Positions 15,897 to 47,713 of a stretch of 64,000 bases of DNA are shown piece by piece (positions within the stretch are counted from its first letter, which is position 1; each line of letters opens with the position of its first letter). A model generated the notes under the pieces. The model had not been told where the DNA came from. It did no database searches and saw nothing but the letters and a program-made list of their open reading frames with translations. Origin of the DNA: an uncultured Mariniplasma sp. (GTDB lineage: Bacteria > Bacillota_I > Bacilli_A > Acholeplasmatales > Acholeplasmataceae). The position numbers and the translations under genes were made by a program. Location: contig CAZMIG010000003.1 in the NCBI GenBank assembly GCA_964566285.1, forward strand, positions 28,654-92,653. Reading direction: 5' to 3'.

Positions 15897-15919
15897 AAAA
15901 CACCTATTTAGGTGTTTTT
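15897..15919 (+). terminator. Rho-independent terminator after asnS
   Basis: AAAACACCT ATTT AGGTGTTTTT. Confidence 0.65.
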
Positions 15920-15952: not shown

Positions 15953-15981
15953 TTGACAAAGCATATTTAACATACTATAAT
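15953..15981 (+). promoter_or_regulatory. Sigma-A type promoter for the ABC/nuclease operon
   Basis: TTGACA (15953-15958), 17-nt spacer, TATAAT (15976-15981). About 285 nt upstream of the first CDS. Confidence 0.55.
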
Positions 15982-18375: not shown

Positions 18376-18388
18376 GAGGGAGAGCAAG

Positions 18389-19798
18389 ATGAAAAGAATT
18401 ACTAAAAAAATTAAAAAGCTTGATTTAATTGCTACTCTCATTGATTTAGTTTATGTATTTGCAGGTTTAGCACTCATTTCATACTTCTTTATTATTCTAA
18501 AAGAACCTCAATTCATTACAGAAGTTATTAACACAACATATAACGTTATGGGCATTACAATAACGTCAGCTCAACTTAATGCTGGCATTAGTATCCTAGT
18601 TGGATATCTTGTTGTATTTATTCCACTCATCGTTTCTCATTCCAAACGTATTAGAAACAAAGACGATATCGAAATGGATGAATGGACATATAGAACACAA
18701 TACCTTTATATGTTTATGAGTTTATTTACGCTAAACCCATTCAGCGCCTTTGTTCGTTATTTAATGGCTACTGAAATTCTGGAAACAGTTCAAGGGTATG
18801 GATTTGTTCAAGCAACGAAAAATGTTTTTATAACGCTCAAAGACCTTCTCACAGGAAAAACTTTCAAACGTATTAAAGAAAAAAGAGAGCACAGAAAACT
18901 TCAATCTGAATCTCAAGCTGACCTTGAAAAAATCAGTAGACAAGATTTAGTTGTTAAAGTTCTTGTCATGGTTGCAACTTATACTTTCTTGACAATGATT
19001 GCTCTATTCATCTTTATTCCATTTTATTGGATGATGATTACAGCTTTAAAAACTCATCAGGAATTATCAAATGCAATCACTCCACGTATGTTTGTAGGTA
19101 TTTCTGAAATGCAATGGGTAAACTTTAAAGTTGCATTAACACAATTTAATTTCTACAGATATATTCAAAACACAATCGTTGTTGGTATATTGTCGATGAT
19201 TGGTACAGTTATAACAACAATACTTGCAGCATTTGCATTTTCGAGATTAGATTTCAAAGGCCGTGAGTTTATTTTCTCAGTTCTATTAATGACAATGATG
19301 ATTCCAGGAGAACTATATACGATTACAAACTATATTACTGTTAGAAATCTTGGTTGGTATGATAGTTTCTACGCATTAATATTTCCATTCATGACAAGCG
19401 TATTTTATATTTTCTTCCTTAGACAATCATTTAAACAAATTCCTGACACACTCTACCGAGCGGCTCAGGTTGATGGCTGTGGAGATTTTAAATATTTAAG
19501 ACGCGTTATGATTCCAATTGCAAAACCAACAATTATTACAATTACAATTTTAAGTGCTATTGGTGCATGGGATGCATATATTTGGCCACAATTAGTTGCT
19601 CCATCACAGGAACATTGGCTAATTTCGGTCGCCTTAAGAAGTACAAGTTTTGTTACAGGTGAAGGTTCTGATGCACGACCAGTATATAACTTACAGCTGG
19701 CTGCAATTGCACTAGTCACCGTTCCACTCCTCATTATTTTCTTCTCACTTAAGAAATACATTATTAGAGGCGTTGGAAGAAGCGGAACGAAAGGTTAA
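18389..19798 (+). CDS. ABC transporter permease (MalG/UgpE-like) with an approximately 200-aa N-terminal membrane extension
   Basis: 469 aa from ATG 18389 (RBS AGGAGGGAG). EAA loop LYRAAQVDGCGDFKYLRRVMIPI. Extra N-terminal hydrophobic helices plus a charged linker KRIKEKREHRKLQSESQADLEK. Confidence 0.85.
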   Translation: MKRITKKIKKLDLIATLIDLVYVFAGLALISYFFIILKEPQFITEVINTTYNVMGITITSAQLNAGISILVGYLVVFIPLIVSHSKRIRNKDDIEMDEWTYRTQYLYMFMSLFTLNPFSAFVRYLMATEILETVQGYGFVQATKNVFITLKDLLTGKTFKRIKEKREHRKLQSESQADLEKISRQDLVVKVLVMVATYTFLTMIALFIFIPFYWMMITALKTHQELSNAITPRMFVGISEMQWVNFKVALTQFNFYRYIQNTIVVGILSMIGTVITTILAAFAFSRLDFKGREFIFSVLLMTMMIPGELYTITNYITVRNLGWYDSFYALIFPFMTSVFYIFFLRQSFKQIPDTLYRAAQVDGCGDFKYLRRVMIPIAKPTIITITILSAIGAWDAYIWPQLVAPSQEHWLISVALRSTSFVTGEGSDARPVYNLQLAAIALVTVPLLIIFFSLKKYIIRGVGRSGTKG

Positions 19799-19850
19799 TT
19801 ATAAGATATTAAGATTGAAAAAGACTAATAAATATATTTGGAGGAAAAAA

Positions 19851-22277
19851 ATGAAAAAAATAGTATTTACGATTCTCATATTATTTGGAGCATTAGCGCT
19901 TTCAGCGTGTGCAACAAAAAGAAATCAAGCACCGGTAATTTCGGGTGCAAATTTAACTCCCGAAATTTATTTAGGAGATGATTATGATCCTTTAGATGGG
20001 GTAACAGCAAGCGACCCCGAAGACGGTGATATCACATCTAGTATTGTAGTTAGTGGCCTAGAAGGCGCGACAGACTCTGTGGGAACTGCAACAATTATTT
20101 TATCAGTTTCGGATTCACAGGGACTTGAGGCAACAAGCGTTACAATCAATTTGACTGTTATAGCAGCAATTGTTCAAGTGCCAACACTTACAGGAGTTGT
20201 CACAAATCCTATGGTTACAGAAGATGATCTGTATAACCCACTCACTGGAGTTACAGCTACAGATATTCAAGATGGTATTTTGACGAGCAGTATTGAAACT
20301 GTAGGATATGATGCAAATGTTTTAGAAACCCCAGGCACATATACATTTTCAATATCTGTAACAGATAGCGATTCAAATACCACTTCAGTAACTGTTACGC
20401 TTACAGTTATTGCAAGAAGTTCATTTGAACCATCGATTAGTTTAGTCAATAGAAATCCTGTAATTACAGTTGGAGATCCTTTTAATCCTTTAACTGGAGT
20501 CACAGCGAGTGACCCTCAAGATGGTGATTTGACAAGTAGTATCGTTGTTTCAGGTTTTGATGTTGAAGACATCAGTGTACCCGGTGTTTATGTTATTACT
20601 CTTGAAATTACTGATGCAGATCAAAATACAACAAGTACGACATTAACATTAACTGTTCTTGCAGTTATTACGCCACCGGTAATTACAGGAGTTGTAGCAG
20701 TTCAGACATATTATATTGGTTCAGGCGCATATGATCCACTTTCTGGCGTTACTGCCACTGATTCAACTGACGGTAACATTACAGATCAAATCGTTGTTAC
20801 AGGTACATATTTATTGGATACTCCAGGCGTGTACACAATTACATTGCGTGTAACGAATTCAAATTTACTTAGAACATCAGTTACCATTCGTTTGACGGTA
20901 GCACAAAGTGAAATTCCACTCACACTTGGAACTGATCCAATTGAAATTACATTATGGCATGCAATGGGTGAAGCGAACCAAGCACTGCTTCAAAAGTATG
21001 CAGATAGCTTCCAGCTATTGTATCCTAATGTTACAGTAATTATTCCTGCTGGTGTCGGCTCTTATGACACATTAAAGACAAACATGATTAATGCAATTAC
21101 TGCTCAAGACATGCCTAATCTTGTTCAAGGGTATCCAGACCATGTAGCTGAATATTTAAATGGTAAAGCTGTAGTTAATTTGAATCCTTATATCTATAGT
21201 GATCAATGGGGTTTAAATGGAGATAATGCACTTGACGATGTTATTGCTTCATACCTTGAAGAAAACAGTCAGTATGATGCTGCTGGAACATATTATTCTC
21301 TCCCATTCAATAAATCTACAGAAATTATGATTTATAACAAGACAGTATTTACTGCACTTGGACTTGATGAACCAGAAACATGGCAAGATATTATTGCAGC
21401 TGGTCCAGATCTTAAAGAATATGGTGATGATCTAGCTGAAGCAAAAGTTAGAGCTGCAAATTCAACACTTGGTGAAACCGCTTTAGCTCCACTTATTGCA
21501 GCAGCTCAGTCATTGATTGTTCCTTCTTCATATGATTCTACAGGTAATGGATTCATTACATTTACACGACAATTTAATGGTGCGTATACGGGAATTGATT
21601 ATGCAACATTTAGCGGTGAGTATTTATGGAATGATAATGTAAATACAACTGCAGCAATGCAATTTTTGAAAGATAATAATGACATTATCACATTGCCAGA
21701 ATTTTGGGATCAAGAATTTGCTTCGGTACCATTCCTTGCCCAACAAACATTTGTAACTATAGGTTCATCCGCAGGTATTAGATATAATATTCCAGCAATT
21801 GATCCAACAACAAGTCTTCCAGTATTTGAAATTGCTGTAGGTCCAGTACCTTATAATGCTGATCTTCCTGATGCAAAAGCTGTTATTCAACAAGGAACTA
21901 ATATTTCATTGATGAAGACGGGCACAGCACAAGAACAACTTGCATCATGGTTATTCTTAAAACACTTAATTAAGACTGAAAACACAACTGACTGGGCTAT
22001 GAATACTGGCTATTTACCAGTTAGAACCAGTGCATATTTAAGTGCAGCATATCAAACTTTCTTAACTTCTCCTACTGCAAATCAACTTCCTATTTCTATG
22101 GCTGCAAACGCTGCATACAAACAATCCGGATATATGTTCTATGATCCAGCATTTATTGGTTCATCTAGAGCACGTGTTCAAGTTGGTTTAGCATTAGAAC
22201 GTATCATGATTGGCGATGGAAATATTGCAGAAGCACTTCTAGAAGCGTATACTGAAGCTAATTTGGGTGGATCGTGA
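19851..22277 (+). CDS. Lipoprotein: four Ig-like (DUF5011-like) repeats fused to an ABC extracellular solute-binding domain (family 1)
   Basis: 808 aa from ATG 19851 (RBS GGAGG). Lipobox LSAC. Four roughly 80-aa repeats of the form ...YDPLDGVTASDPEDGDITSSIVVSG...T.T.TV.A. The C-terminal half is SBP-like (ITLWHAMGEANQALLQKYADSF...). Confidence 0.85.
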   Translation: MKKIVFTILILFGALALSACATKRNQAPVISGANLTPEIYLGDDYDPLDGVTASDPEDGDITSSIVVSGLEGATDSVGTATIILSVSDSQGLEATSVTINLTVIAAIVQVPTLTGVVTNPMVTEDDLYNPLTGVTATDIQDGILTSSIETVGYDANVLETPGTYTFSISVTDSDSNTTSVTVTLTVIARSSFEPSISLVNRNPVITVGDPFNPLTGVTASDPQDGDLTSSIVVSGFDVEDISVPGVYVITLEITDADQNTTSTTLTLTVLAVITPPVITGVVAVQTYYIGSGAYDPLSGVTATDSTDGNITDQIVVTGTYLLDTPGVYTITLRVTNSNLLRTSVTIRLTVAQSEIPLTLGTDPIEITLWHAMGEANQALLQKYADSFQLLYPNVTVIIPAGVGSYDTLKTNMINAITAQDMPNLVQGYPDHVAEYLNGKAVVNLNPYIYSDQWGLNGDNALDDVIASYLEENSQYDAAGTYYSLPFNKSTEIMIYNKTVFTALGLDEPETWQDIIAAGPDLKEYGDDLAEAKVRAANSTLGETALAPLIAAAQSLIVPSSYDSTGNGFITFTRQFNGAYTGIDYATFSGEYLWNDNVNTTAAMQFLKDNNDIITLPEFWDQEFASVPFLAQQTFVTIGSSAGIRYNIPAIDPTTSLPVFEIAVGPVPYNADLPDAKAVIQQGTNISLMKTGTAQEQLASWLFLKHLIKTENTTDWAMNTGYLPVRTSAYLSAAYQTFLTSPTANQLPISMAANAAYKQSGYMFYDPAFIGSSRARVQVGLALERIMIGDGNIAEALLEAYTEANLGGS
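19929..20900 (+). repeat. Four tandem intragenic Ig-like domain repeats (about 240 nt each, diverged)
   Basis: The recurring protein motif P(L/T)xGVTA(S/T)D..DG.(I/L)T(S/D) occurs four times. Confidence 0.8.
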
Positions 22278-24355
22278 GAAAATATTATTTCGTTCTACTT
22301 ATCATAATTTTCGGATTCTTTGCATCATCGTGCGAAGAATCTGAAATTCCAGTTGTAGACAATAAAATTACGTTAATAGATTTAGCAGGAAAAATAGAGG
22401 AAGAAATATTAGCACTATATGCGAATGAGGATTTAACTATTACTTTTAGCACTTTGGAAACCAATGATTATTCGGAAAATGAATTTGTTAGATATATAGG
22501 ATATTCTATTGGAGATCAAGTTGATCCTGGGATAGAAATAAGTATTGAAATCGCAATACCATTAATTACAAGTTTTATTCTTGAAGATTTATCAGGTAAG
22601 ACACAGGCTGAAATATCAGCAATTTATGCAGATACAGATGTAACAATCACGTTTGTTTTGACAAAAACAAATGATGTTGCACCAGGCTTGTTTGTTTCCT
22701 ATGTTGGTTATCAATTTGGTGATGAGGTTGATTTTGGAGAAACTATTACTATTCAAATTGCAGAACCGCTTGTTTTGAAATTCACTCTACCCGATTTGGT
22801 TGGAATGACTCAAACAGAGATTGAAGTATTATTTGCTGATGTGGACTTAGTTATTACTTATAGAGAAGTTTCATCAAGTGAAGTTCCAGCTGGACAGTTT
22901 ATTAAATATGGTGGATTTTCAGCAGGAAACGAAGTGAGTTTTGGCACAAATATTAGAATTGACATAGCTGTTTTAGCACCATCTGCACCTACGATAAGCG
23001 GAGCTGATGATGAAACTATTTATGCAGCAGTTACAGGTAACCCGCCAACTTTTGATATTTTCGATGGTGTTCATGCTTATGATTATTTAGGAAATGAAAT
23101 ACCACTCGGTGGATTCTTCTTCATTCTTAAGATTGAGGACAGCGCAAGCAATATCATCGAAGCAGTTGATTATTATAGAGTAGGAGATTATACAATTTAC
23201 TATCAAGCTATAAATTCTCTACTTACCACAACTGTTGAAAGGGTAATTCATATTGTAATTCCACCATTTGATACCGATCAAACAGATGCATTGAGACTTG
23301 ATGTTACTTATACTGGACTATCATTTATTGATGATGGTATCGGAGAAGTTGAAATTACATCATTTACTGATGCTGACACAACTAATTTTGTTGATGTTGT
23401 AAGTGGTGACAAATTTACAGTTCGTTATTTAGGCATTGATGCTCCCGAAGCAACTAGCAAATATGATCCTTGGGGTATCAAAGCAGCTAATTTTGTTCGT
23501 GAAATACTGACGAATGCTGATAAGATTATTCTACAGGCTGAAGGCGACAGAACAGATGGCAACGGTAGATATCTTGCTTGGGTGTGGTATATTGTTGATG
23601 GCGAAACTAGATTACTCAATTTAGAAATAGTTGAACAGGCGTACGCGTGGGTATCTGGAGCAACCACAACACAATATGCAACTCCATTTGAGATTGCAGG
23701 TGCGGAAACTCAGTTAACTGGAAAACGTATTTATGGTGAAATAGATCCAGATTATGATTATAGTACTGAAGGTACACCAATTGAAATAGGTATCCTAATT
23801 GATACATTTGATGACTATTTAGCAAGAAAAGTAACTGTAACAGGTATTATCACATCAAAAGTAGGTAATAGTATTTACTTAGAACAAAATGGTAGAGGTA
23901 TATATATATATACAGGTTATAATCCAACTAATGAACTACAAATTGGTTATGAAGTTACAATTCAAGGGTTAGTTGGTGCTGTATATTATGAAGGAAAGCA
24001 ATTATCGGATTACAAGTATGAAAATATGCAGCTCGAATCTATCGACAATCCAGTGGTTATAACAACAATTATGGGAAATCAAATCGGAAATTATGTTGGT
24101 AGAGTTGTAAATTTTGAAAATTTAACGATTCAAAGTATAGATCCATCTGATACTAATAATGCATATACCATTATTGCGAAGGATGATTTAAACAACACAG
24201 TAAACATTCGTGTTGACGACTATACTGCATCATTTGCACCAAGTTATTTATTTGTTTCTGGTGCACACATATCGGTTTTTGGACCTGTTACACAATTTTA
24301 TTCAACATATCAATTGATGCTACCAGGTTTGGGAAATATAGAGTTCAAGGATTAA
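22274..24355 (+). CDS. Surface lipoprotein nuclease A: PASTA-like x3 + Ig-like + SNase (thermonuclease) + OB-like C-terminus
   Basis: 693 aa. The GTG start overlaps the SBP stop. Lipobox ASSC. SNase core FTVRYLGIDAPEATSKY...GRYLAWVWY...LNLEIVEQAYAWV. C-terminal module KVTVTGIITSKVGNSIYLEQNGRGIYIYTG. Confidence 0.8.
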   Translation: MRKYYFVLLIIIFGFFASSCEESEIPVVDNKITLIDLAGKIEEEILALYANEDLTITFSTLETNDYSENEFVRYIGYSIGDQVDPGIEISIEIAIPLITSFILEDLSGKTQAEISAIYADTDVTITFVLTKTNDVAPGLFVSYVGYQFGDEVDFGETITIQIAEPLVLKFTLPDLVGMTQTEIEVLFADVDLVITYREVSSSEVPAGQFIKYGGFSAGNEVSFGTNIRIDIAVLAPSAPTISGADDETIYAAVTGNPPTFDIFDGVHAYDYLGNEIPLGGFFFILKIEDSASNIIEAVDYYRVGDYTIYYQAINSLLTTTVERVIHIVIPPFDTDQTDALRLDVTYTGLSFIDDGIGEVEITSFTDADTTNFVDVVSGDKFTVRYLGIDAPEATSKYDPWGIKAANFVREILTNADKIILQAEGDRTDGNGRYLAWVWYIVDGETRLLNLEIVEQAYAWVSGATTTQYATPFEIAGAETQLTGKRIYGEIDPDYDYSTEGTPIEIGILIDTFDDYLARKVTVTGIITSKVGNSIYLEQNGRGIYIYTGYNPTNELQIGYEVTIQGLVGAVYYEGKQLSDYKYENMQLESIDNPVVITTIMGNQIGNYVGRVVNFENLTIQSIDPSDTNNAYTIIAKDDLNNTVNIRVDDYTASFAPSYLFVSGAHISVFGPVTQFYSTYQLMLPGLGNIEFKD

Positions 24356-24380
24356 AAAAAATATAATGGAGGAAAGTCAA

Positions 24381-27300
24381 ATGAGTAAAAGATTAACGTT
24401 TAAAAGCGCATTATCATTCATTGTGATACTATTTACTGCATTTTTTCTTGTTGGTTGTGGCGACACAGATCAAGAACTAGTAGATGCAGCACTCAGTGAT
24501 GTTGCATTAGTTTTTGCAACAGGAGATAGTGCGACTTCAGTGACACAGAACTTATCATTGCCAACGGCAGTTGGTGAAACAATCACCATTTCATGGTCTT
24601 CTGATAAGACTGCAGTCATATCAAATGCTGGCGTAGTTGTACGTCCTGCAGTTGGTCAGCCAGATGCAACAGTTGTTTTAACTGGCACATTGACCATGGG
24701 TGAAGCAACAGCAACAAAAGCATTTACGCTTGTTGTTAAAGCAATGGTGCTAACTGATCAACAAACTGTTGATGCGGCGGTTCCTAACGTTGCAATCACA
24801 TATGCAACTGGTGATAGTGCAACATTAGTCAACGAAGATGTAGTTTTACCTACAGCAGTTGGTACAGTTGTAGTTGCATGGTCTTCTGATACACCTGCAG
24901 TAATTTCTAATGCTGGTGTTGTTGTACGACCTGCAAAAGGTGAAGCAGATGCGACAGTTGTTTTAACAGCAACCTTAACTAAGGGTACTGCAACAGCAAC
25001 TAAAACATTCACATTGGTTGTTCATGCTTTGCAATATACTGATCAAGAATTAGTAGACATGGCAGTTACTGCACTAATGGTTGGTTATGCAGTTGGTGAT
25101 ACTGTTGATACAGTCACTGCAGATGTAACTCTTGCTGCAACATCAAACACAGCAACAGTTGCTTGGGCATCAGATACTCCAGCAGTTATTTCTAACGCTG
25201 GTGTCGTTGTACGTCCTGCAAAAGGTGAAGCTGATGTGGTAGTTATCTTAACTGCAACGCTTACTATTGGCGCTGTTGAAGAAACTAAGACATTTACTCT
25301 TACAGTCTTAGCTATTCCTTATACTGAAGAAGATGCTACAGCTGCACTTGATATTTCAGGTACAGATCTTGTCTATAATGCTGAAACAAGCAGATACACT
25401 ACAACAAGTGATATTACTTTACCAGAAACATCATTAGAATTTGATATTGTTTGGACATCTGGAAATGAAACATTTATTGGTGCAAATGGCGTAGTCGTCA
25501 GACCAGCATATGGAGAAACAGATTCAACAGTTATCTTAACTGCAACGATTGGTGAAGAAACAAAAGAATTTATTGTTACAGTCTTAGCTATTACAGTTAA
25601 ACCTGCAGCATTAAAGCTTGCAGATGCAGCGACTATCTTATTGCTTTCTGGCGGAATTGAAGCTGGTGTTGTAACTGGCAAACTAGAATTAGCAACTACA
25701 GTTGGTACTGAAGGTGTTACAGTTGCATGGGCTTCAAGTGATACAACCGTTATTACATCTACAGGTAGTGTATATAGACCTGAATTAGGTGAAGAAAATG
25801 CAAACGTTACATTAACAGCAACATTGTCTGTTGATGATGAATCAACTACTAAGGTTTTCAATGTTATTGTTACAGCTAGAACAGTTGCAGCAGAATTTTC
25901 TGGAACCATAGCTGAAGTCATGGCACAAGCAAAAGACACTTATGTTAGAGTTGTTGGTGTTACGATTTTCGGTGAAGCTTTAGATGGTTTTTATATTGCA
26001 GATGCAACAGGTACAGCATTTATATATGGCGCAGCAATTCCTACTGATTTTGATTTTGGTAGTGTTGTTGATATTGAAGGATTTATTGATATATATTATC
26101 TTGCAATGCAAATATCTGGTACTGATGCTGAACCAATTTATGTTCTTCCTTCTGACGCAGCAGTAACAGAAGTTGCTTATCCAGAAACAGCAATTGATAG
26201 TATTACTTCTATGGCTCTACCTGCAGTTGGTACTGAATTCAATATGATGCCAGTAACCGTTACAGCAAGAGTACTTGTTACAGGAACAGGCAACTATGAT
26301 GTATTCTTAGTGCCAGTTGATCATAGAGGCGATTTAGATAAGGACACAGCACTTATGATTTATTATAAGTCTAATATTGCAGCTTTAAGACCTTTAGATG
26401 GACAAAAAGTTCAAATTGAAATCGTCGTGTCTACCTATCGTACAAATGATCTAGTATGGACTTTTGTCTTCTTACAAGAAGCAGAAGATATTACTATTAT
26501 TCCAAATACAGATTTAGAATGGATTGAAATTGCTCAAGGCTCATTAGCATATGAATTTGAAAAAGAATATGTCTTAACAGAAACATTCGAATTGCCTACA
26601 GATATTGAAGGCGTAGCAATCAGTTGGGTATCAGATAACGAATTGTTTGATGTAACAACTGGCGTTCTTGCAATGCCATTAACTGGACAAGAAGATGTTA
26701 CATTGACTGCAACACTTACAAAAGGTGATGCTACAGGTGAATTTACAGCTACATTCAAAGCTGGTGACAAACCAGTTCAGACTATAGCAGAAGCACTCGC
26801 AGTTTCCACAGGAGATTTAGTTCATGTTGTTGGTGTTGTAACAGCAAATCAATACTATAGAATATTCTTTATTCAAGATGATACTGGTGGTATTGCAATT
26901 TATACATCCGATGCTGATCTTATCACTTTCTTAACAACAAATTATGGTAAAGAAGTTGACATCGTTGGTACAAGAGCAGCTAACTATGGTTTAAATGAAA
27001 TTTCTTATACTCAAATTTACAGTCTTGTCGGTGATGCTACAATGCCAATAGCTGTAAATATTGATTCATTTGAACTAGATGCAACAGCTTTAGCACCATA
27101 TCAAGGACAATTGGTCGAATTGACTGGTCTTGCAGTTCTTGAAATAGATGAAGATAAATATGGAAATATTAGCGTTACATTATATGATGCAAATGCTAAT
27201 GAAGAAATTATATTGAAATGGGATTCAAGATTTACATTGACAACAGAAGCAGCTGCTGTATTAGATTCTATAGCTGTTAATGATGTTATTGATATTGTAA

Positions 27301-29531
27301 ATCCACTTGCTTGGGATGGCGGACCTCGTCTATTCTTTACAGATTCTACAACTATTACTAAGCAAGATTTATCAGATGCTGAAAGAGTTGCTTTGGCAAA
27401 ATCTACAGCTGTTGGATATTTTGAAGATGAATATAATGTAATTACAACTTTAGTTCCATTTACATCTTTATTTGGAGCTACAATCGCTTATGATACTGCA
27501 AGTGAATATTTTGATGTAACAACAGGCGAAGTAACTCTTCCTACAATGGGACGTGAAACTGTTAGTATTACAGCCACTATTTCATTCGGCACTGAAACTG
27601 ACACGGCTACAATTGAGTTTATCGTTGGACCATATCTAATATCGGATGTAAAGGCCGGGGTTGACGATGATGAGTTCCGTATTCAAGGTATAGTTATTTC
27701 AAGCCCTTACAACGCTACATATTTTATACAAGATGAATCTGGTGCACTTGCAATATATACATATGATACAGCACTTCAAGCTTTATTAGTCTTAGGTGAT
27801 CTTGTTGAAATAACTGGTGTTAGAGATTCATTTGGTGGATTAATAGAATTTGCACCAAGTACTGTTGTTGTTTTAGATAATGATGTCACACTACCGGATG
27901 CAGTTAATGTTGACTCCTTAGATTTAGACGATGAAGCATTATTACCATATCAATCACAGGTTGTTGTTATGACGCAAATGGTTGTTAATTCAATAGCAAC
28001 TGGATACAATAATTACTCCGTAATCTTATATAACGCAATCGCTGATGATACAATCGAACTTCGTTATGACACACGTCTTACAATTTCTACAACAGCTCTT
28101 GATGTTCTTCATGGCTTAGTTGTTGGTGATATTGTTGACGTTACATCTGTACTTTCGTGGTACTTTACTGGACCTCAATATATCTATACAGAATCTACTA
28201 TTGTTGTTGATACTCCAGTACCAAGTGCAGAAGCGCTTGCTGCAGTTGATAAAATGAAGGCTGATGCAGATGCAGCAGAACTTACTATTGTTGCAAAAGT
28301 TGAAGAAGCAACTACTTTGGACCTTGATGTTTTAGGTACAAATGGTTCCACCATTGTTTGGACATCAACTGATGATTTAGTCATTGATCCAGATACTGGT
28401 ATTGTTGTTCTTCCAGCAGAAGGTCAAGTCACAATTACTTTAACTGCTACAGTAACATTGAATTTAGCTGAAACTGTAGTTACATTTGATGTATTAGTTG
28501 GTGTTCCTTCTGCACCAGTTGTACAAACATTAGATTTATACTTCTCAGAATATATTGAAGGTAGTAGTTATAATAAAGCTATTGAAATTTATAACCCAAC
28601 TAATGCAACTATAGATTTAACTACTTATACTGTTGAACTTTATTCCAATGGATCAGCTACTGTTGGATTTACAGAAACACTAACAGGAACGTTAAATGCT
28701 GGCCAAACACTTGTTCTAGTTTATGCTTCAGCTACGGCAGCTTTTAAAGTTGGTAATTATGTTGAAAGTGCTGTAACAAACTTTAATGGTGATGACACAA
28801 TTCTACTTAAAAATGATGGTGCTATTATTGATAGCTTTGGACAAAATGGATTTGATCCAGGTACAAGTTGGACAGTGGGCGGTGTTAGTACAGCAAACAT
28901 GACTTTAATTAGAAAAGCTGCTGTCAAATATGGCGACCTAGATTCAACAAACGTTTTTGATCCAAGTGCTGAATGGGTTGCATTTGAACAAGATACTACA
29001 ACTTACCTTGGATACCATGCTCCTGATTTATTCATCTCTGAATATATTGAAGGTTCAAGTAGTAACAAGGCATTAGAAATTTATAACCCAACTGTAGAAA
29101 CTATTGATTTATCAACGTATGTTATTGAACAGTATAAAGGGACTTTAGTTGCAGATTATACATTATCACTCACTGGAACATTAGCTCCAGGTGCTGTATA
29201 TGTTATAGCTGCTGACCAAGCCAGTACAACTGTACTTGACTTGGCAGATTTAGAACTTTCTTATCCAAGTATTGTTCATTTCACCGGTGACGACACTATA
29301 GTTTTAAAAAATGCTACTACAATTATTGACTGTATTGGACAAATTGGATTCGATCCAGGTACTGCATGGGGAGTTTCTACTGTTAGTTATACAGCTGAAA
29401 TGACGCTCGTAAGAAATGTAGATATTATGCGTGGCTATACAGATGCACTTGCTGTTTACGATCCAACTCTTGAATGGACTTTTTACCCACAAGATACTTT
29501 TACTTATCTAGGATCTCATACAGTTAGCTAA
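24381..29531 (+). CDS. Giant surface lipoprotein: 8 Ig-like repeats, 3 OB-like modules, 2 C-terminal lamin-tail domains, no catalytic domain recognised
   Basis: 1716 aa from ATG 24381 (RBS GGAGGA). Lipobox LVGC. Repeats of the form LP.....ITWSS......ISN.GVVVRP..G..DA.V.LTATLT.G.....K.F.L.V. OB-like modules such as LVHVVGVVTANQYYRIFFIQDDTGGIAIYT. LTD motifs FSEYIEGSSYNKAIEIYNPT and ISEYIEGSSSNKALEIYNPT. Confidence 0.8.
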   Translation: MSKRLTFKSALSFIVILFTAFFLVGCGDTDQELVDAALSDVALVFATGDSATSVTQNLSLPTAVGETITISWSSDKTAVISNAGVVVRPAVGQPDATVVLTGTLTMGEATATKAFTLVVKAMVLTDQQTVDAAVPNVAITYATGDSATLVNEDVVLPTAVGTVVVAWSSDTPAVISNAGVVVRPAKGEADATVVLTATLTKGTATATKTFTLVVHALQYTDQELVDMAVTALMVGYAVGDTVDTVTADVTLAATSNTATVAWASDTPAVISNAGVVVRPAKGEADVVVILTATLTIGAVEETKTFTLTVLAIPYTEEDATAALDISGTDLVYNAETSRYTTTSDITLPETSLEFDIVWTSGNETFIGANGVVVRPAYGETDSTVILTATIGEETKEFIVTVLAITVKPAALKLADAATILLLSGGIEAGVVTGKLELATTVGTEGVTVAWASSDTTVITSTGSVYRPELGEENANVTLTATLSVDDESTTKVFNVIVTARTVAAEFSGTIAEVMAQAKDTYVRVVGVTIFGEALDGFYIADATGTAFIYGAAIPTDFDFGSVVDIEGFIDIYYLAMQISGTDAEPIYVLPSDAAVTEVAYPETAIDSITSMALPAVGTEFNMMPVTVTARVLVTGTGNYDVFLVPVDHRGDLDKDTALMIYYKSNIAALRPLDGQKVQIEIVVSTYRTNDLVWTFVFLQEAEDITIIPNTDLEWIEIAQGSLAYEFEKEYVLTETFELPTDIEGVAISWVSDNELFDVTTGVLAMPLTGQEDVTLTATLTKGDATGEFTATFKAGDKPVQTIAEALAVSTGDLVHVVGVVTANQYYRIFFIQDDTGGIAIYTSDADLITFLTTNYGKEVDIVGTRAANYGLNEISYTQIYSLVGDATMPIAVNIDSFELDATALAPYQGQLVELTGLAVLEIDEDKYGNISVTLYDANANEEIILKWDSRFTLTTEAAAVLDSIAVNDVIDIVNPLAWDGGPRLFFTDSTTITKQDLSDAERVALAKSTAVGYFEDEYNVITTLVPFTSLFGATIAYDTASEYFDVTTGEVTLPTMGRETVSITATISFGTETDTATIEFIVGPYLISDVKAGVDDDEFRIQGIVISSPYNATYFIQDESGALAIYTYDTALQALLVLGDLVEITGVRDSFGGLIEFAPSTVVVLDNDVTLPDAVNVDSLDLDDEALLPYQSQVVVMTQMVVNSIATGYNNYSVILYNAIADDTIELRYDTRLTISTTALDVLHGLVVGDIVDVTSVLSWYFTGPQYIYTESTIVVDTPVPSAEALAAVDKMKADADAAELTIVAKVEEATTLDLDVLGTNGSTIVWTSTDDLVIDPDTGIVVLPAEGQVTITLTATVTLNLAETVVTFDVLVGVPSAPVVQTLDLYFSEYIEGSSYNKAIEIYNPTNATIDLTTYTVELYSNGSATVGFTETLTGTLNAGQTLVLVYASATAAFKVGNYVESAVTNFNGDDTILLKNDGAIIDSFGQNGFDPGTSWTVGGVSTANMTLIRKAAVKYGDLDSTNVFDPSAEWVAFEQDTTTYLGYHAPDLFISEYIEGSSSNKALEIYNPTVETIDLSTYVIEQYKGTLVADYTLSLTGTLAPGAVYVIAADQASTTVLDLADLELSYPSIVHFTGDDTIVLKNATTIIDCIGQIGFDPGTAWGVSTVSYTAEMTLVRNVDIMRGYTDALAVYDPTLEWTFYPQDTFTYLGSHTVS

Positions 29532-29556: not shown

Positions 29557-29585
29557 AAGACGCATAGATTTTATGCGTCTTTTTC
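29557..29585 (+). terminator. Rho-independent terminator after the giant lipoprotein gene
   Basis: AAGACGCATA GATTT TATGCGTCTT followed by TTTT. Confidence 0.7.
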
Positions 29586-29658
29586 TTTGCTTTATTGTTC
29601 AAATGACATCTATAACATTATATGTTATAATACTTATGCCTACGAGGAGATAATTTAT

Positions 29659-31509
29659 ATGTTCAAAAAAGTATGTTTTATAATAATAAGTGTAATAAGT
29701 ATAATAAGCCTTGGGGCGTGTCATCAACCAGTAGAGGAAACTGATGATATCATATTACCTAATCTATCAGGGATGAATAAGACACAAGCACTTGATCAAT
29801 TTTCTGAGTTTGATCTAAATGTTACTGTAATAGATGTTATCAATAATGATATTATGGTTGGAAGGTTTATTTCTTATAACGAGCCATATATAGCAGGTAT
29901 GATTGTTCTTCCGGATACAGAAATTATATTGTATTTCGTGAAGCAAGCAAACGAATTACCTGATTTGTCAGGAATGAACCAGACAGAAATTATAGAGGAA
30001 CTATCCTTAATTGATGTTAATGTTTCTTTTGAGTATATTGATACAAATGCAATCCAAGAAGGACTATTTGTTCAATATGGTGATCTTCTAAAATCTGGAG
30101 ATATTGTAGATATTGGAACGGAAATTACTATTGATCTTGCAACTCCATTTGATGTTTTAGTTTACTTACCTAATTTGAGTGGACTAAATGAAGCAGAAAT
30201 AGAAATTAGATTATCAGCAATTGATATTGATTTCGATATACAGACCATTCAAAATAATGATGTATCAGAAGGATATTTTGTTCAATATGAAGGTCTATAC
30301 ATAACTGGTAGCGCAGTACCCTTGGGACAAGCAATTATTGTCTATGTTGCTGAACATGTCAATATGTTGCCAGACCTAGATGGCCTCAATCAGACTCAAA
30401 TCATCAGCAGATTAGCTAAAATTAGCGTCATCATTGAGTTTAAGGTCACTGCTACAAATGATATAGAAGAAGGATTGTTTGTAAATTATGGCAATGATTT
30501 ACAATCTGGAGATATCGTTAAGATCAATTCAATCGTTATAATATATATTGCTCAGCCTGTGATAACCGTTAATACTAACTTAATGATCTCTAGCTATCTC
30601 GAGGGGGCACTTTTGAATCGAGCAATTGAACTTTATAATGTTTCCGATGAACCGATTGACTTGTCAAACTATAAATTAGTTCTTTATCTTGACGGATTAG
30701 AATCAGTTGGGGTAACTATTGATTTGGAGGGAATTCTTTTGGCAAAAGATGTTTATGTGATTGCTCATGAAAACAGCAATGAAAGTATCTTATCGAAAGC
30801 TAACTTAACAACACAAAATTTGATTTTTAATGGCAATGATGCAGTTGCACTTCAATATTATAATGATGTTATTGTTGATATTGTTGGTAATATAGGATGG
30901 GGTTTATACTATTTAAGCGATCGGACACTGGTCAGAGATGGGTCTGTTTCTCAAGCAAGCGATCTTTTCAATATTGATGAATGGGATGAATACAGATCAG
31001 ATTATGATGCTATTTTGGGCATACATCCAACGCAATATCCAGTAACGTTCACTTTTGATTCATCATTTCTAACTGTTCCCTTTACTGAGCCCGGCGGAAT
31101 GATTGAAGTTGAATATGTTTCAATATATGATGGGGATACAGCATATTTTACACCAGGATTTCTTGGAGATAATAGAGTCCGTTTCATCGGAATTGATACG
31201 ACAGAAATAGGCAGTGGAACATTTGCTATTGCTGCAAGAAACTTTGTTGCATCTTTACTCTCTAATGCAACAACCATATACCTTCAACATGATCCTGAAT
31301 CTGGAATTGTTGATACATATGGAAGATCACTTGCACTCGTTTGGGCTGATGGTGTTCTCATAAATTATGAGGTCGTTCTTCATGGATACAGTCAAAACAA
31401 TTATCAGGACCCTACACACGCTTTAATTTTTAATAATATTCCACTCAGCACATGGATGACTAATGCTGAAAAATATGCAAAAGAAAATCACTTAGGAGTA
31501 TGGGCATAA
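29659..31509 (+). CDS. Surface lipoprotein nuclease B: PASTA-like x4 + lamin-tail domain + SNase (thermonuclease)
   Basis: 616 aa from ATG 29659 (RBS GAGGAG). Lipobox LGAC. Four repeats LPNLSGMN...(I/V)..G.F(I/V).Y. LTD ISSYLEGALLNRAIELYNVSDEPIDLSNY. SNase core VRFIGIDTTE...YGRSLALVWADGVLINYEVVLHGY. Confidence 0.8.
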   Translation: MFKKVCFIIISVISIISLGACHQPVEETDDIILPNLSGMNKTQALDQFSEFDLNVTVIDVINNDIMVGRFISYNEPYIAGMIVLPDTEIILYFVKQANELPDLSGMNQTEIIEELSLIDVNVSFEYIDTNAIQEGLFVQYGDLLKSGDIVDIGTEITIDLATPFDVLVYLPNLSGLNEAEIEIRLSAIDIDFDIQTIQNNDVSEGYFVQYEGLYITGSAVPLGQAIIVYVAEHVNMLPDLDGLNQTQIISRLAKISVIIEFKVTATNDIEEGLFVNYGNDLQSGDIVKINSIVIIYIAQPVITVNTNLMISSYLEGALLNRAIELYNVSDEPIDLSNYKLVLYLDGLESVGVTIDLEGILLAKDVYVIAHENSNESILSKANLTTQNLIFNGNDAVALQYYNDVIVDIVGNIGWGLYYLSDRTLVRDGSVSQASDLFNIDEWDEYRSDYDAILGIHPTQYPVTFTFDSSFLTVPFTEPGGMIEVEYVSIYDGDTAYFTPGFLGDNRVRFIGIDTTEIGSGTFAIAARNFVASLLSNATTIYLQHDPESGIVDTYGRSLALVWADGVLINYEVVLHGYSQNNYQDPTHALIFNNIPLSTWMTNAEKYAKENHLGVWA

Positions 31510-31510
31510 T

Positions 31511-32335
31511 ATGATTAAATATATCAACCGGATTATCTATGCTTTATTGGCAGCATTAGGATTAATGATTGTCTTCAACTTAACCGATTCATACGCAAGA
31601 ACACTCTATCTTGAAGAGCAGGGAGCAATTGCTATTGAAAATAATGATTACGCATATTTTATATCCGTAAGATTTTATGATGAAGTGCCACTTGTCGAAG
31701 AAACAATTACAGTTTCTGACCGCACATTTGATTTGATGATTTATCAAGCTGCATATATTCAGTTAGTAAACGAAACTTATGTTGTTCATGATGGAATTTA
31801 TATTATGATGCATCAAACGGTAGGCAATTCACTAAATGATTTCTTTACAGTTCGGATTTCTTCGGGAACCAAAATTACGAAAGATTTTATGGGAGTTAAA
31901 ATATTTAGTTTACCACTTTACTCAGTATTAGATGAGGATACTCAAGCATCTCTACTAAAGAAGAGTGCATTTGAAAGTGATAGTGTTTTTCAAACCATTA
32001 CCAATATAACTATTTTTCAGGACAATGATGAATTAACACAAATTCCTGTGAATATTGAAGAAACACAATTTACAGTAAAAACCGATATCATCGATTACAT
32101 CAATTTGAATGGATCTGCTCCAGATGAAGCATTCGGAAATGTATCTATGGCACCTATTATCGAAATTGATACAAGACCTATTGTTTTTCGTAATATTGCT
32201 ATCTATATCGTTTTCGCTATCGGAGTGACAGTTTTAATCTTCACAGCACGCAAGAGACTAGGTAAAAAAGAGCCTACAATAGGCGTTAAACAGGATATTG
32301 AAAAATTAGTAGAACAGGATAGAAAAGAGCGATGA
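31511..32335 (+). CDS. Hypothetical bitopic membrane protein (N- and C-terminal TM helices, extracytoplasmic middle)
   Basis: 274 aa. Starts 1 nt after the nuclease B stop. I recognise no family motif. Confidence 0.6.
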   Translation: MIKYINRIIYALLAALGLMIVFNLTDSYARTLYLEEQGAIAIENNDYAYFISVRFYDEVPLVEETITVSDRTFDLMIYQAAYIQLVNETYVVHDGIYIMMHQTVGNSLNDFFTVRISSGTKITKDFMGVKIFSLPLYSVLDEDTQASLLKKSAFESDSVFQTITNITIFQDNDELTQIPVNIEETQFTVKTDIIDYINLNGSAPDEAFGNVSMAPIIEIDTRPIVFRNIAIYIVFAIGVTVLIFTARKRLGKKEPTIGVKQDIEKLVEQDRKER

Positions 32336-32349: not shown

Positions 32350-32396
32350 TTCTATTTATGATATACTATTCTAATATAATTGAGAAAGGAACTTAC

Positions 32397-33356
32397 ATGA
32401 ATATTAAAACAAAAATCTATGAAATGATTAAAACTTACAAGGTAATTATCATTCATAGGCATTTAAGACCAGATATGGATGCAATCGGTAGCCAATATGG
32501 CCTATATTTAACGATCAAGGCTAATTTTCCTAATAAATCAGTATATGTTGTTGGTGATGCTAGCGACATGAGCTATCTATCAACAATGGATGATATACCT
32601 GATGAAACCTATCGAGACGCATTAGCAATTATTACAGATGTTTCGGTGACTAAACTAATTAGTGATGATCGGTATAATCTTGCTAAAGAGCGCATTATTA
32701 TTGATCACCATCAAAACGATACAGATGTATCTAATGTTTCAGTTTTTTATAAAGAACCAACTTTCGCTTCCGCATCTGAAATGATTGTTGATTTAATCAG
32801 AACCTTTAAATTAATAGTTACACCAGAAGCTGCAACTTATCTTTACGGAGGTATGGTTACTGATACTGGAAGATTTCTTCATCTAAATGATGCAAGCAAA
32901 ACATTTGAACTTGCAGCTTACATTACAAGATTCAACCCCAATATTCAAGAGTTCTATGCATATATCTATACTGAACCTCTCCAAAAAAGACTTACAAAAA
33001 ATTTATTTTCAACTTTTGAGACAACAGAAAATGGAGTTGCGTACAGAAAAAATGATGCTGAATTGATTAACAAAAGTGGATTGGAGTTTCAGTCTATAAG
33101 TCGAGGTATGGTTAATCAAATGGCGGGTATCAAAGAGATTCCTATTTGGGCAAACTTTACAGAAGACGTTGAAAATAATGTCATCGTTGGAGAATTTAGA
33201 GCAAGAGGTATTACCATTGTTGACATTGCCAAGAAATATGGTGGTGGTGGACACAATCAGGCTTGTGGAGCAAGTTTTAAGAATTGGCGAGATGTTGATT
33301 TAATTATCAAAGATTTAGACGAAAGGGCAAAATTACATGCAAAAGATACTAAATAA
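32397..33356 (+). CDS. DHH/DHHA1 phosphoesterase (NrnA-like nanoRNase/pAp phosphatase), paralog 1
   Basis: 319 aa from ATG 32397. Motifs HRHLRPDMDAIGS, DHHQN, GGGGHNQACGASF. Confidence 0.85.
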   Translation: MNIKTKIYEMIKTYKVIIIHRHLRPDMDAIGSQYGLYLTIKANFPNKSVYVVGDASDMSYLSTMDDIPDETYRDALAIITDVSVTKLISDDRYNLAKERIIIDHHQNDTDVSNVSVFYKEPTFASASEMIVDLIRTFKLIVTPEAATYLYGGMVTDTGRFLHLNDASKTFELAAYITRFNPNIQEFYAYIYTEPLQKRLTKNLFSTFETTENGVAYRKNDAELINKSGLEFQSISRGMVNQMAGIKEIPIWANFTEDVENNVIVGEFRARGITIVDIAKKYGGGGHNQACGASFKNWRDVDLIIKDLDERAKLHAKDTK

Positions 33357-34275
33357 AATTAAAGAATATAATACGATTATCATTCACGGACACAAAAGAC
33401 CAGATGGGGATTGTTATGGATCTCAATTTGGATTAAAAAATATTATAAAAAATTCATTTCCGGATAAAAAAGTTTATGTCGTTGGTCAAACGAGTGCTTT
33501 TGTTGATTTCATTGGTAAAATAGATGAAATCACTGACGAAACTTATCAAGGTGCTTTAAGCATTGTTGTAGATACGGCAGTTGAAGATAGAATTAGTGAT
33601 CCACGTTATTCGTTAGGCAAAGAGATTATTAAAATTGATCATCATATTCCCGTTGATGATTATGGCGATATTAGATGGGTTGATACAAATTTTCCTTCAT
33701 GTGCACAAATGATTGCGTATTTTTACTACAAAAATAAAAAAGAATTAAAATTATCATTAGATGGAGCAATCGCAATGTATACAGGAATCGTCACTGACAC
33801 AGGGAGATTCCGTTTTAGAGGTGTTTCTAACCTCACACATAAAATGGCTGGCATGTTACTAGATAAGGGCGTAGACGTCGAATACATAGACTCAAAACTC
33901 AGTAAAGAATCCTTAGAGATGATTGGTCTTAAAGGATATGTATATAGTAATTTTGTTACAACGAAGGGCTTTATCTATTTGAAGATGACAAGAGACATCA
34001 TAGATAAATTCCAAGTAACTGATGAGCAAGCTGCATCTGTTGTGGGCTTGTTAGGCGGTATTGAAGGATTTCCGGTATGGGCGTTATTTATTGAATACCC
34101 AAATGAAGTTAGAATTAGATTGAGATCTAATGGTCCTACAATCAATGAACTAGCAAATAGATTTGGTGGAGGCGGACACGCAAAAGCATCAGGAGCAAGA
34201 TTAGAAAGTTGGGATCAACTTCCAGAATTTATTGCCGATGTTGAAGCTGTAGTAAAAGCTTATAACGAAGCATAA
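33337..34275 (+). CDS. DHH/DHHA1 phosphoesterase (NrnA-like), paralog 2
   Basis: 312 aa. Motifs HGHKRPDGDCYGS, DHHIP, GGGGHAKASGARL. Overlaps paralog 1 by 20 nt. Confidence 0.85.
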   Translation: MQKILNKIKEYNTIIIHGHKRPDGDCYGSQFGLKNIIKNSFPDKKVYVVGQTSAFVDFIGKIDEITDETYQGALSIVVDTAVEDRISDPRYSLGKEIIKIDHHIPVDDYGDIRWVDTNFPSCAQMIAYFYYKNKKELKLSLDGAIAMYTGIVTDTGRFRFRGVSNLTHKMAGMLLDKGVDVEYIDSKLSKESLEMIGLKGYVYSNFVTTKGFIYLKMTRDIIDKFQVTDEQAASVVGLLGGIEGFPVWALFIEYPNEVRIRLRSNGPTINELANRFGGGGHAKASGARLESWDQLPEFIADVEAVVKAYNEA

Positions 34276-47505: not shown

Positions 47506-47713
47506 TATAAATCTCCTCCTTTTTATAAAATCCAAAACAGCAAATACACATCTCTTCCCCTTATTTCTGAAAATAAGAGAGTGTACAAATGAAATAACAA
47601 CATGATAAAAATATCGTATTGCAACATAAATATGTAATGATTACGTATATTATACTATCTTTCATGTATGAAATACAAACTTAGCATGTTACTTATTAAA
47701 AATTAGAAAAAAG

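Follow-up and report, generated by a model that had tools for sequence, protein, structure and literature searches.

The gene and its domain architecture

The window analyzed here is a 64,000-nucleotide stretch of DNA from an uncultured Mariniplasma sp. of the Acholeplasmataceae (GenBank assembly GCA_964566285.1, contig CAZMIG010000003.1). Our subject is an open reading frame (ORF) at 24381..29531 on the plus strand, which translates without interruption into 1716 codons plus a stop and whose product we call the giant lipoprotein. A GGAGGA Shine-Dalgarno sequence at 24368-24373 lies 7 nucleotides (nt) ahead of ATG 24381, and we therefore take this ATG to be the right start. The ORF list offered an alternative start, ATG 24366, which was rejected because it falls within the GGAGGA ribosome-binding site. 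Direct reading of the N-terminus, MSKRLTFKSALSFIVILFTAFFLVGC, reveals a basic n-region, a hydrophobic core, and an L-V-G-C lipobox at amino acids (aa) 23-26 that conforms to the bacterial lipoprotein pattern [LVI][ASTVI][GAS]C. This segment (aa 1-26, 24381..24458) has the features of a typical lipoprotein signal peptide, and the product is predicted to be a lipoprotein.

Behind the signal peptide stand five tandem aBig_2 Ig-like repeats (aa 28-500, 24462..25880), presumed to form a stalk and placed at aa 28-120, 125-215, 220-310, 325-404, and 413-500. Three modules of roughly 200 aa follow, each succeeded by one further repeat: module 1 (aa 503-706, 25887..26498) by repeat 6 (aa 709-795, 26505..26765), module 2 (aa 797-994, 26769..27362) by repeat 7 (aa about 1005-1083, 27393..27629), and module 3 (aa 1084-1278, 27630..28214) by repeat 8 (aa about 1290-1374, 28248..28502). 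Two lamin-tail domains (LTDs; aa 1384-1546 and 1549-1716, 28530..29528) complete the protein, all of whose parts are on the plus strand. The repeat boundaries were obtained by BLAST of fragments against the whole protein (self-BLAST) and then adjusted by reading the sequence. No stretch outside a domain is longer than about 12 residues.

Pfam assigned aBig_2 (PF20578) to 8 stretches (E = 5.9e-129; 420.6 bits against a cut-off of 27) and LTD (PF00932) to 2 (E = 2.1e-29; 102.6 bits against 34.3). The LTDs also matched the N-terminal region of ExeM in NCBIfam (positions 18-173, E = 2.5e-38), and the PDB sequence match of aBig_2 was the non-catalytic domain of an arabinanase, 5ho0. By self-BLAST, the aBig_2 repeats are 39-68% identical to one another. 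Their duplication is visible in the DNA as a 285-nt period with 73% and 61% identity, and the two LTD copies are 52-63% identical in amino acids and 71-77% in nucleotides. A prediction made earlier without database searches (the original prediction) had described a 1716-aa lipoprotein of architecture (Ig-like)5-[OB + Ig]3-(LTD)2, and the ORF, the lipobox, Pfam, and self-BLAST all agree with it.

The inter-repeat modules as tandem OB folds

In the structure models, each inter-repeat module consists of two OB barrels, not one. Modules 1 and 2 were modeled; module 3 was assigned through its identity to module 2 (about 40% by self-BLAST), and it scored 281 bits against the module profile. For module 2, the input to AlphaFold2 was an alignment (A1) of the three window modules and three database relatives, and the model (pLDDT 91.2, pTM 0.83) contains two five-stranded barrels with one helix on each. 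In module 1, the most divergent of the three, the first barrel aligned to module 2 with an hhalign probability of 91%, and the second barrel gave no hhalign alignment to module 2. Because of this failure, module 1 was modeled separately with AlphaFold2, which again returned a tandem OB fold (pLDDT 88.5). The original prediction had pointed to "OB-like" segments at these places. Their identity as OB folds held, but their extent did not, since the strings quoted were only the first strands of the first barrel.

Searches of the PDB with Foldseek placed both models among nucleic-acid-binding proteins. Module 2 retrieved Teb1 AB, RPA70 AB, Deinococcus/Thermus SSB, and BRCA2, together with numerous HIN-200 domains, among them those of p202, AIM2, and IFI16 in complex with double-stranded DNA. 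Its single-barrel matches were YgiW (TM 0.78), RPA14, and the anticodon-binding domain of LysRS. Module 1 retrieved RPA70, POT1, p204/AIM2 HIN, Teb1, and Cdc13. At E < 1e-3, the matches of the two modules were all nucleic-acid binders, save YgiW. A HIN/p202-like fold was evident from matches to 4jbm, 4l5q, 3rnu, and 3rn2, among others.

Sequence comparisons gave weaker links. The modules matched RPA14, YhaM, and YgiW at E values of about 0.01-0.07, and module 2 matched positions 1-130 of the NCBIfam ExeM/NucH model NF033681 at E = 2.3e-7, under the cut-off. Against the BOF and DUF5689 models of Pfam, the giant lipoprotein reached E values of 0.08-0.25; for DUF5689 (PF18942), the score was 11.6 bits (E = 0.25), and the cut-off of 28.6 was not reached. 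Module 2 carries the conserved motifs FFIQDxTGGIAIY, YQGQLV, KWDSR, and PLAW. Its alignment contains 33 invariant columns, aromatic and K/R residues among them; Y27, F32, Y43, K148, W149, R152, and W180 (module numbering) are invariant.

Absence of a catalytic domain

The original prediction held that the protein lacks a catalytic domain, and this was borne out by Pfam, NCBIfam, PDB sequence, and fold searches, none of which gave an enzyme match. No catalytic family was found at E values up to 1 in Pfam, nor in NCBIfam, nor by PDB sequence search; in particular, EEP had no match at E up to 1 in Pfam, and nuclease families, including endonuclease I, were absent from the Pfam and NCBIfam results. 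Two Foldseek searches found no enzyme fold in the modeled modules 1 and 2. A check for an EEP or metallophosphatase fold hidden in the inter-repeat regions was likewise negative, the modeled modules being plain OB pairs. The NCBIfam scores of the giant lipoprotein were 131.7 bits for NF033680 (cut-off 1300) and 30 bits for NF033681 (cut-off 300). Such scores, far under the cut-offs, place it outside the ExeM/Xds/NucH family.

We also considered whether the OB modules might be carbohydrate-binding modules (CBMs), an identity supported by no match. CBM and lectin families were absent from the Pfam and NCBIfam results for the giant lipoprotein, and no fold of either kind was retrieved by Foldseek with the modeled modules.

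Relatives of the module and its fusion partners

A word-indexed search yielded just 3 relatives from the protein query and 3 fragments from a profile query. An exhaustive profile search with the module alignment returned 4,502 proteins at E ≤ 1e-3, 115 of them at E ≤ 1e-30, and a Pfam scan covered 113 of the best 150 profile matches. Among these 113 relatives, aBig_2 was present in 83, the tRNA_anti-codon OB family in 40 (best whole-protein E, 2.6e-22), LTD in 28, and DUF5689 in 23 (best whole-protein E, 3.2e-56). SNase, Metallophos plus 5'-nucleotidase, and PLDc_2 were each found in 3, and EEP and Subtilase in 1 each. A catalytic domain of any sort thus occurs in at most 11 of the 113, and the catalytic partners of the module comprise 10 matches of the nucleic-acid phosphodiesterase type versus 1 protease. 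The 37 closest relatives are all free of catalytic domains, and an enzyme-free array is therefore the rule among close relatives. The original prediction had assumed that OB-like and lamin-tail modules normally flank catalytic domains, which fails for the closest relatives of this module.

One relative, P0080, has the architecture DUF6359-SNase-DUF5689, and its DUF5689 match scores 73.6 bits, above the cut-off. Because the match to our module profile and the Pfam DUF5689 match overlap on the same residues, the module is a divergent relative of DUF5689, at the superfamily level only. Two further loci come from Bacteroidota (L036, 9827-12217, and L043, 9920-12145); each encodes a DUF5689-like tandem OB fold with two PLD-type nuclease domains and a type IX secretion (T9SS) sorting tail, and L043 also contains a gene for a TonB-dependent receptor, about 4 kb from the DUF5689-like/PLD gene. 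In two Mollicutes-like loci (L045, 8001-11747, and L046, 8001-12572), a tandem OB fold is combined with Big_2, Ig-like, and OppA-type SBP_bac_5 domains at the head of an OppBCDF operon. DUF4131, which we take to be the OB-like N-terminal domain of ComEC, matched 6 relatives in Pfam.

Public databases name the relatives "hypothetical," "lamin tail domain-containing," or "immunoglobulin-like domain-containing," and once "predicted extracellular nuclease." The last label, from IMG, belongs to P0179 (1639 aa), whose cluster representative, P0042, is of the same length and has only aBig_2 and LTD in Pfam. The IMG label is likely an annotation carry-over from ExeM-type LTD/OB similarity.

Neighboring genes

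The giant lipoprotein is predicted to be encoded by the last gene of an importer operon. A consensus scan placed a sigma-70-type promoter (TTGACA-17-TATAAT, 15953..15981, plus strand) before the ABC ATPase gene; it matches the consensus at 12 of 12 positions and is the best of the region. The same kind of scan placed a terminator-like hairpin at 15897-15918, closing the asnS gene. There follow, on the plus strand, an ABC ATPase (16268-17320; Pfam ABC_tran), two ABC permeases (17317-18375 and 18350-19798; Pfam BPD_transp_1), a substrate-binding protein (SBP) that is a lipoprotein (19773..22277), and a first SNase lipoprotein (SNase 1, 22274..24355). Directly after the giant gene, the consensus scan marked a terminator-like hairpin (29557-29581, plus strand), and a promoter-like site for the next gene, encoding SNase 2, follows at 29603-29631 (plus strand). 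The prediction that the operon ends with the giant gene derives from these signals: the promoter before the ATPase gene, the terminator after the giant gene, and the new promoter for SNase 2. In the SBP, about 380 aa of Ig-like sequence (Bact_surface_Ig-like x4) precede a UgpB-like SBP_bac_8 domain (Pfam and NCBIfam), and this protein, too, is probably held off the membrane by an Ig stalk.

The two SNase lipoproteins flank the giant gene, as the original prediction had stated: Pfam found SNase in both neighbors, and each has a lipobox (FFASSC in SNase 1 and SLGAC in SNase 2). SNase 2 (29659..31509, plus strand) contains PASTA repeats, an LTD, and the SNase domain (Pfam and NCBIfam), and its likely start is ATG 29659, after an AGGAG ribosome-binding site. 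Read against what we take to be the pattern of the Staphylococcus aureus nuclease, both enzymes retain the Ca-ligand/catalytic motifs DxDT, R..GIDxPE/GIDTTE, and GR. SNase 1 contains PASTA repeats, an Ig-like domain, and the SNase domain (Pfam), followed by a C-terminal region (aa about 495-693, 23756-24352, plus strand) that had no Pfam match and just chance-level matches in a PDB profile search. This region matched the module profile (E = 1.5e-7 within the window), and an alignment of its orthologues matched module 2 with an hhalign probability of 79% (E = 1.6e-5, 160 columns). Because of these two matches, SNase 1 probably ends in the same tandem OB module as the giant lipoprotein. Each of the giant lipoprotein's two accessory domain types would then recur on a flanking nuclease, the OB module on SNase 1 and the LTD on SNase 2. 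Both SNase lipoproteins carry several PASTA repeats, which is odd for a presumably wall-less bacterium. PASTA repeats are best known in penicillin-binding proteins and PknB kinases, as a peptidoglycan sensor; those of the SNases may be simple spacers.

Downstream of SNase 2 lies a gene for a conserved 274-aa membrane protein (31511..32335, plus strand) with hydrophobic N- and C-terminal segments and an acidic middle. No family was found for it in Pfam, NCBIfam, or a PDB sequence search, and the protein probably represents a part, so far undescribed, of the scavenging system proposed below. Two genes for NrnA-like, cytoplasmic DHH/DHHA1 phosphoesterases follow (32358..34275, plus strand; Pfam). 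They are tandem paralogues with a 20-nt overlap.

Conservation of the locus

A pattern scan of one genome per species, with patterns taken from an alignment of module 2 orthologues, found 28 loci in genomes of other species. Identity to module 2 ranged from 70% to 33%, the closest matches being a metagenome-assembled genome (MAG) labeled Bacillota (70%) and a Mariniplasma MAG (66%). The hosts include Acholeplasmataceae, Mariniplasma, Paracholeplasma vituli, strain MO-XQ, an Izemoplasmatales MAG, and similar genomes. All ORFs of the 28 loci were searched with the window proteins, and gene order was judged where the contig was long enough. The shared order is asnS, ATPase, permease, permease, SBP, (SNase 1), giant, PASTA/LTD/SNase, unknown protein, DHH, DHH. 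SNase 1 is present in 11 of the 28 loci, and in the loci without it, the giant gene comes directly after the SBP gene. The counterpart of the 274-aa protein lies between SNase 2 and the DHH pair in nearly all loci that are long enough, and the DHH/DHHA1 pair is kept in nearly all that extend that far downstream. A few loci depart from the order downstream; L031 is without SNase 2, and in L025 the SNase is upstream instead.

The orthologues have the architecture Ig3-(OB2-Ig)2-3-LTD0-2, and the window protein, with Ig5-(OB2-Ig)3-LTD2, is the largest seen. The OB-Ig core is constant among them, and the number of LTDs and the length of the stalk vary. The relative encoded at the Izemoplasmatales locus L031 matched only the Ig and OB profiles used here, in a comparison that included no catalytic-domain scan.

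A nucleic-acid capture protein as the favored interpretation

On balance, we favor the interpretation that the giant lipoprotein, lipid-anchored, polyvalent, and without catalytic activity, captures nucleic acids for a scavenging system, a reading that the models and sequence comparisons make moderately probable. The nucleic-acid-binding part of this reading is drawn from four indirect lines of evidence: the tandem OB folds best match DNA/RNA binders; weak sequence links lead to the OB region of ExeM/NucH and to DUF5689; the module is fused to SNase, PLD, EEP, and 5'-nucleotidase domains, probably including that of SNase 1; and in 28 genomes of other species the gene has this very place in the operon, as far as the contigs reach. 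The original prediction of a non-catalytic polyvalent DNA-binding scaffold is plausible and partly supported.

The analysis establishes the domain layout, the tandem OB fold, the lack of an enzyme domain, the conserved operon, and the domain fusions. We infer nucleic acid as the ligand, a hand-off to the nucleases, and the cargo of the transporter, and propose the following scheme. The five aBig_2 Ig-like repeats would form a stalk out from the membrane, and the six OB barrels of the three modules, spaced by Ig-like repeats, would together with the two distal LTDs bind extracellular DNA or RNA with avidity at the surface. DNA would thus stay on the cell surface during its digestion as a food source. 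The two co-encoded SNase lipoproteins, one probably with an OB module and the other with an LTD, would cut the polymer. Staphylococcal nuclease releases 3'-phosphorylated products, and the UgpB-like binding lipoprotein and the ABC importer could take in such phosphorylated products. The two DHH/DHHA1 enzymes could complete the degradation in the cytoplasm; DHH enzymes of the NrnA type break down short oligonucleotides and pAp.

Several observations weigh against this interpretation. The main counter-evidence is the strong acidity of the giant lipoprotein, which is unusual in a DNA binder: its net charge is -168, its isoelectric point (pI) is about 4, and each domain has a charge of -6 to -17. 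The DNA-binding surfaces of the HIN-200 proteins and of RPA70/POT1 are basic, whereas the giant lipoprotein is acidic. TM-scores to the HIN and RPA tandem domains are only about 0.4-0.45, because the relative orientation of the two barrels differs, and no ligand is known for YgiW/BOF, to which a single barrel has its best structural match. In three relatives, the module is fused to an OppA-type binding protein in OppBCDF operons with no nuclease nearby; either these Opp systems can import oligonucleotides or the module can serve other ligands. Roughly one-third of the orthologues have no LTDs. Nor is the LTD needed in Xds or for the extracellular breakdown of DNA by ExeM, although ExeM without its LTD was slower in vitro (PMC6085458, PMC6746945). 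Finally, for DdbD, a Bacteroides protein proposed to bind DNA, we found no DNA-binding assay in PMC12478041.

The acidity is a trait of the exoproteome as a whole and does not single out the giant lipoprotein, because the SBP (net charge -52), both SNases (-65 and -67), and a second giant lipoprotein-like ORF (43021-47535, minus strand; 1503 aa, net charge -231) are just as acidic. The SBP and the two SNases also have a pI of about 4. Neighboring cytoplasmic proteins are near neutral or just mildly acidic. The 1503-aa ORF has a weak MtxA_IG-like match (E = 5e-4). A saline habitat is a plausible reason for the acidity of the exoproteome. Should the giant lipoprotein indeed bind nucleic acid, it would probably do so with the help of cations and aromatic stacking.

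Alternative explanations

The same domains could make the protein an attachment factor, an adhesin or glycan/particle binder whose OB folds and LTDs bind oligosaccharides or host or mineral surfaces. Both domain types are known in sugar-binding contexts too (PMC6085458, PMC6746945), aBig_2 repeats occur in an arabinanase, and a few relatives bear HL_N-beta, chitobiase C-terminal, or InlB-type repeats; the acidic surface disfavors DNA, and the genome encodes another giant acidic lipoprotein (43021-47535). We nevertheless consider this unlikely, given that no search matched a CBM or lectin family or fold, that the catalytic partners of the module favor nucleic-acid phosphodiesterases ten to one, and that the gene keeps its position in a nuclease/ABC/DHH operon across 28 species. 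A protein-protein scaffold or spacer, which would arrange the SNases, SBP, and importer on the membrane or shield the cell and bind no DNA, is improbable as well. The strong conservation of the barrel motifs, including the invariant aromatic and K/R residues, speaks against it, as does the presence of the module on single-chain secreted nucleases, which need no partner scaffold. What such a role would explain is the variable number of Ig and LTD units, which looks structural, and the co-transcription with SBP and SNase indicated by the signal scan; OB folds are able to mediate protein-protein contacts (PMC6746945), and a tethering role has been suggested for the LTD (PMC6085458).

We give little credence to an antenna for products, in which short oligonucleotides or nucleotides set free by the SNases are caught by the OB modules and handed on to the SBP, even though relatives fuse the module directly to ABC substrate-binding proteins and the gene comes immediately after that of the SBP where SNase 1 is missing. 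A polyvalent array on a long stalk fits a polymer better than small products, and the nuclease fusions point to binding of substrate rather than product; moreover, this would be a sub-variant of capture and not a true alternative to it. Still less probable is a receptor for natural transformation that delivers intact DNA to an uptake machine. It would have a precedent in the Riemerella DUF5689 protein RA0C_RS04920, a DdbD homologue essential for natural transformation (PMC8459023), and the DUF4131 matches among the relatives lead in the same direction. However, incoming DNA would not survive the two SNases and the nanoRNase-type DHH enzymes of the operon, the transporter belongs to the ABC importers for small solutes, and no competence genes were seen among the scanned ORFs in a scan of the window that was not exhaustive. 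Least probable is a cryptic enzyme, with a diverged nuclease or phosphatase site hidden in a module. In its favor, the second barrel of module 1 is unalignable to that of module 2 by hhalign, and one relative bears the nuclease label in IMG, which probably derives from LTD/OB similarity to ExeM. Yet every residue falls in Ig, OB, or LTD folds, the two models show plain pairs of OB barrels and match no enzyme fold, and catalytic families gave no match at E up to 1.

Comparison with known systems

The closest published concept comes from "Candidatus Izemoplasmatales," whose DNA-degradation loci encode a 1,049-aa protein with YhcR-like OB, LTD, and C-terminal endonuclease I domains (Wasmund et al. 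2021, PMC8289736), hypothesized to hold polymeric DNA near the cell during digestion (PMC8289736, supplement). Like the giant lipoprotein, it is large and secreted, combines OB and LTD, and belongs to a Tenericutes-related lineage, where its gene lies among those for extracellular nucleases, ABC transporters, and phosphohydrolases. Unlike the window protein, which has no endonuclease I, it is itself a nuclease, a comparison made by description and not by sequence. The window protein further differs in its three tandem OB modules interleaved with aBig_2, its two LTDs, its occurrence in Acholeplasmataceae-type genomes, and its fixed place after the SBP gene.

DdbD, a DUF5689 lipoprotein of the Bacteroides ddbABCDEF DNA-utilization locus, has a model that resembles p202 (4JBM) and has been proposed as the DNA-binding partner of a TonB-dependent transporter (PMC12478041). 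Both it and the giant lipoprotein are non-catalytic surface lipoproteins from loci with secreted nucleases and a transporter. The p202 HIN fold (PDB 4JBM) is a further likeness, the same PDB family topping the Foldseek lists for the window modules, and our module profile retrieves DUF5689 proteins (P0080 over the cut-off). In contrast, the window protein has three modules, an Ig stalk, and LTDs, belongs to a wall-less monoderm, and stays below the PF18942 cut-off; the partner of DdbD, DdbC, is a TonB-dependent transporter, whereas the neighbors of the giant lipoprotein are an ABC importer and an SBP.

In ExeM and Xds, which consist of an LTD, two OB folds, and EEP, the OB region is essential for DNA degradation (PMC6085458, PMC6746945). 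The LTDs of the window protein match the ExeM N-terminus, and there is a weak match between module 2 and the beginning of the ExeM/NucH model. The combination of LTD and YhcR-like double OB is present in the window protein in reversed order, OB first and LTD last; it differs further in having no EEP and in its multiplied and rearranged accessory domains.

Operons of Mycoplasma that join an SNase lipoprotein, an ABC transporter, and an SBP (mhp379, MAG_5040/P80) have been proposed to import nucleic-acid precursors (PMC3585158). The window locus likewise brings together SNase lipoproteins, a sugar-type ABC importer, and a binding lipoprotein; an OB/Ig/LTD giant is not described for Mycoplasma. 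The HIN-200 proteins (AIM2, IFI16, p202) and RPA70/POT1 share the two-barrel OB arrangement (Foldseek probability about 1.0), with a different inter-barrel geometry and no sequence-level relationship. With SusE/SusF, the giant lipoprotein shares the principle of a non-catalytic, multi-domain, lipid-anchored binder encoded with hydrolases and a transporter for one polymer. Fold, polymer, cell envelope, and transporter type differ, and the parallel is an analogy only; a Sus-type analogy has been drawn for the ddb locus (PMC12478041).

A literature search for Mariniplasma or Acholeplasmataceae together with extracellular DNA returned nothing specific. The concept of a surface DNA holder is not new, having been published for Izemoplasmatales (PMC8289736) and Bacteroides DdbD (PMC12478041). 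Different here are the full loss of catalysis, the three-fold tandem OB array on an Ig stalk, the coupling to an ABC importer in a wall-less cell, and the strict conservation as a distinct gene across a family.

Implications

We put forward, tentatively and as somewhat short of an even bet, that these enzyme-free, polyvalent lipoproteins make up a conserved class without a name as yet, "DNA fishing lines" of architecture Ig(3-5)-(tandem OB-Ig)(2-3)-LTD(0-2) that bind DNA at a pI of about 4. If so, bridges of divalent cations and aromatic stacking, and not basic patches, would presumably provide the contact with DNA, and how a protein with such a pI could bind DNA is of biophysical interest. 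At about 200 aa and with a pLDDT of about 90, the module would be a tractable system for the question of binding by DUF5689/YhcR-type tandem OB folds. The annotation of relatives is at present "hypothetical," "lamin tail domain-containing," or, misleadingly, "predicted extracellular nuclease."

Extracellular DNA is a major pool of phosphorus, nitrogen, and carbon, and Mollicutes depend on scavenged nucleotides. To our knowledge, published work on DNA foraging has centered on nucleases. If it is real, the class would correspond, in wall-less monoderms, to binders of the SusD/E/F or DdbD type, and together with the SNase lipoproteins, the ABC importer, and the DHH enzymes it would define a "nucleic-acid utilization locus" widespread in Acholeplasmataceae. 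Should the capture role prove true, wall-less bacteria would organize DNA foraging as Bacteroidota organize glycan foraging, with binder, hydrolases, transporter, and cytoplasmic finishing enzymes within one locus.

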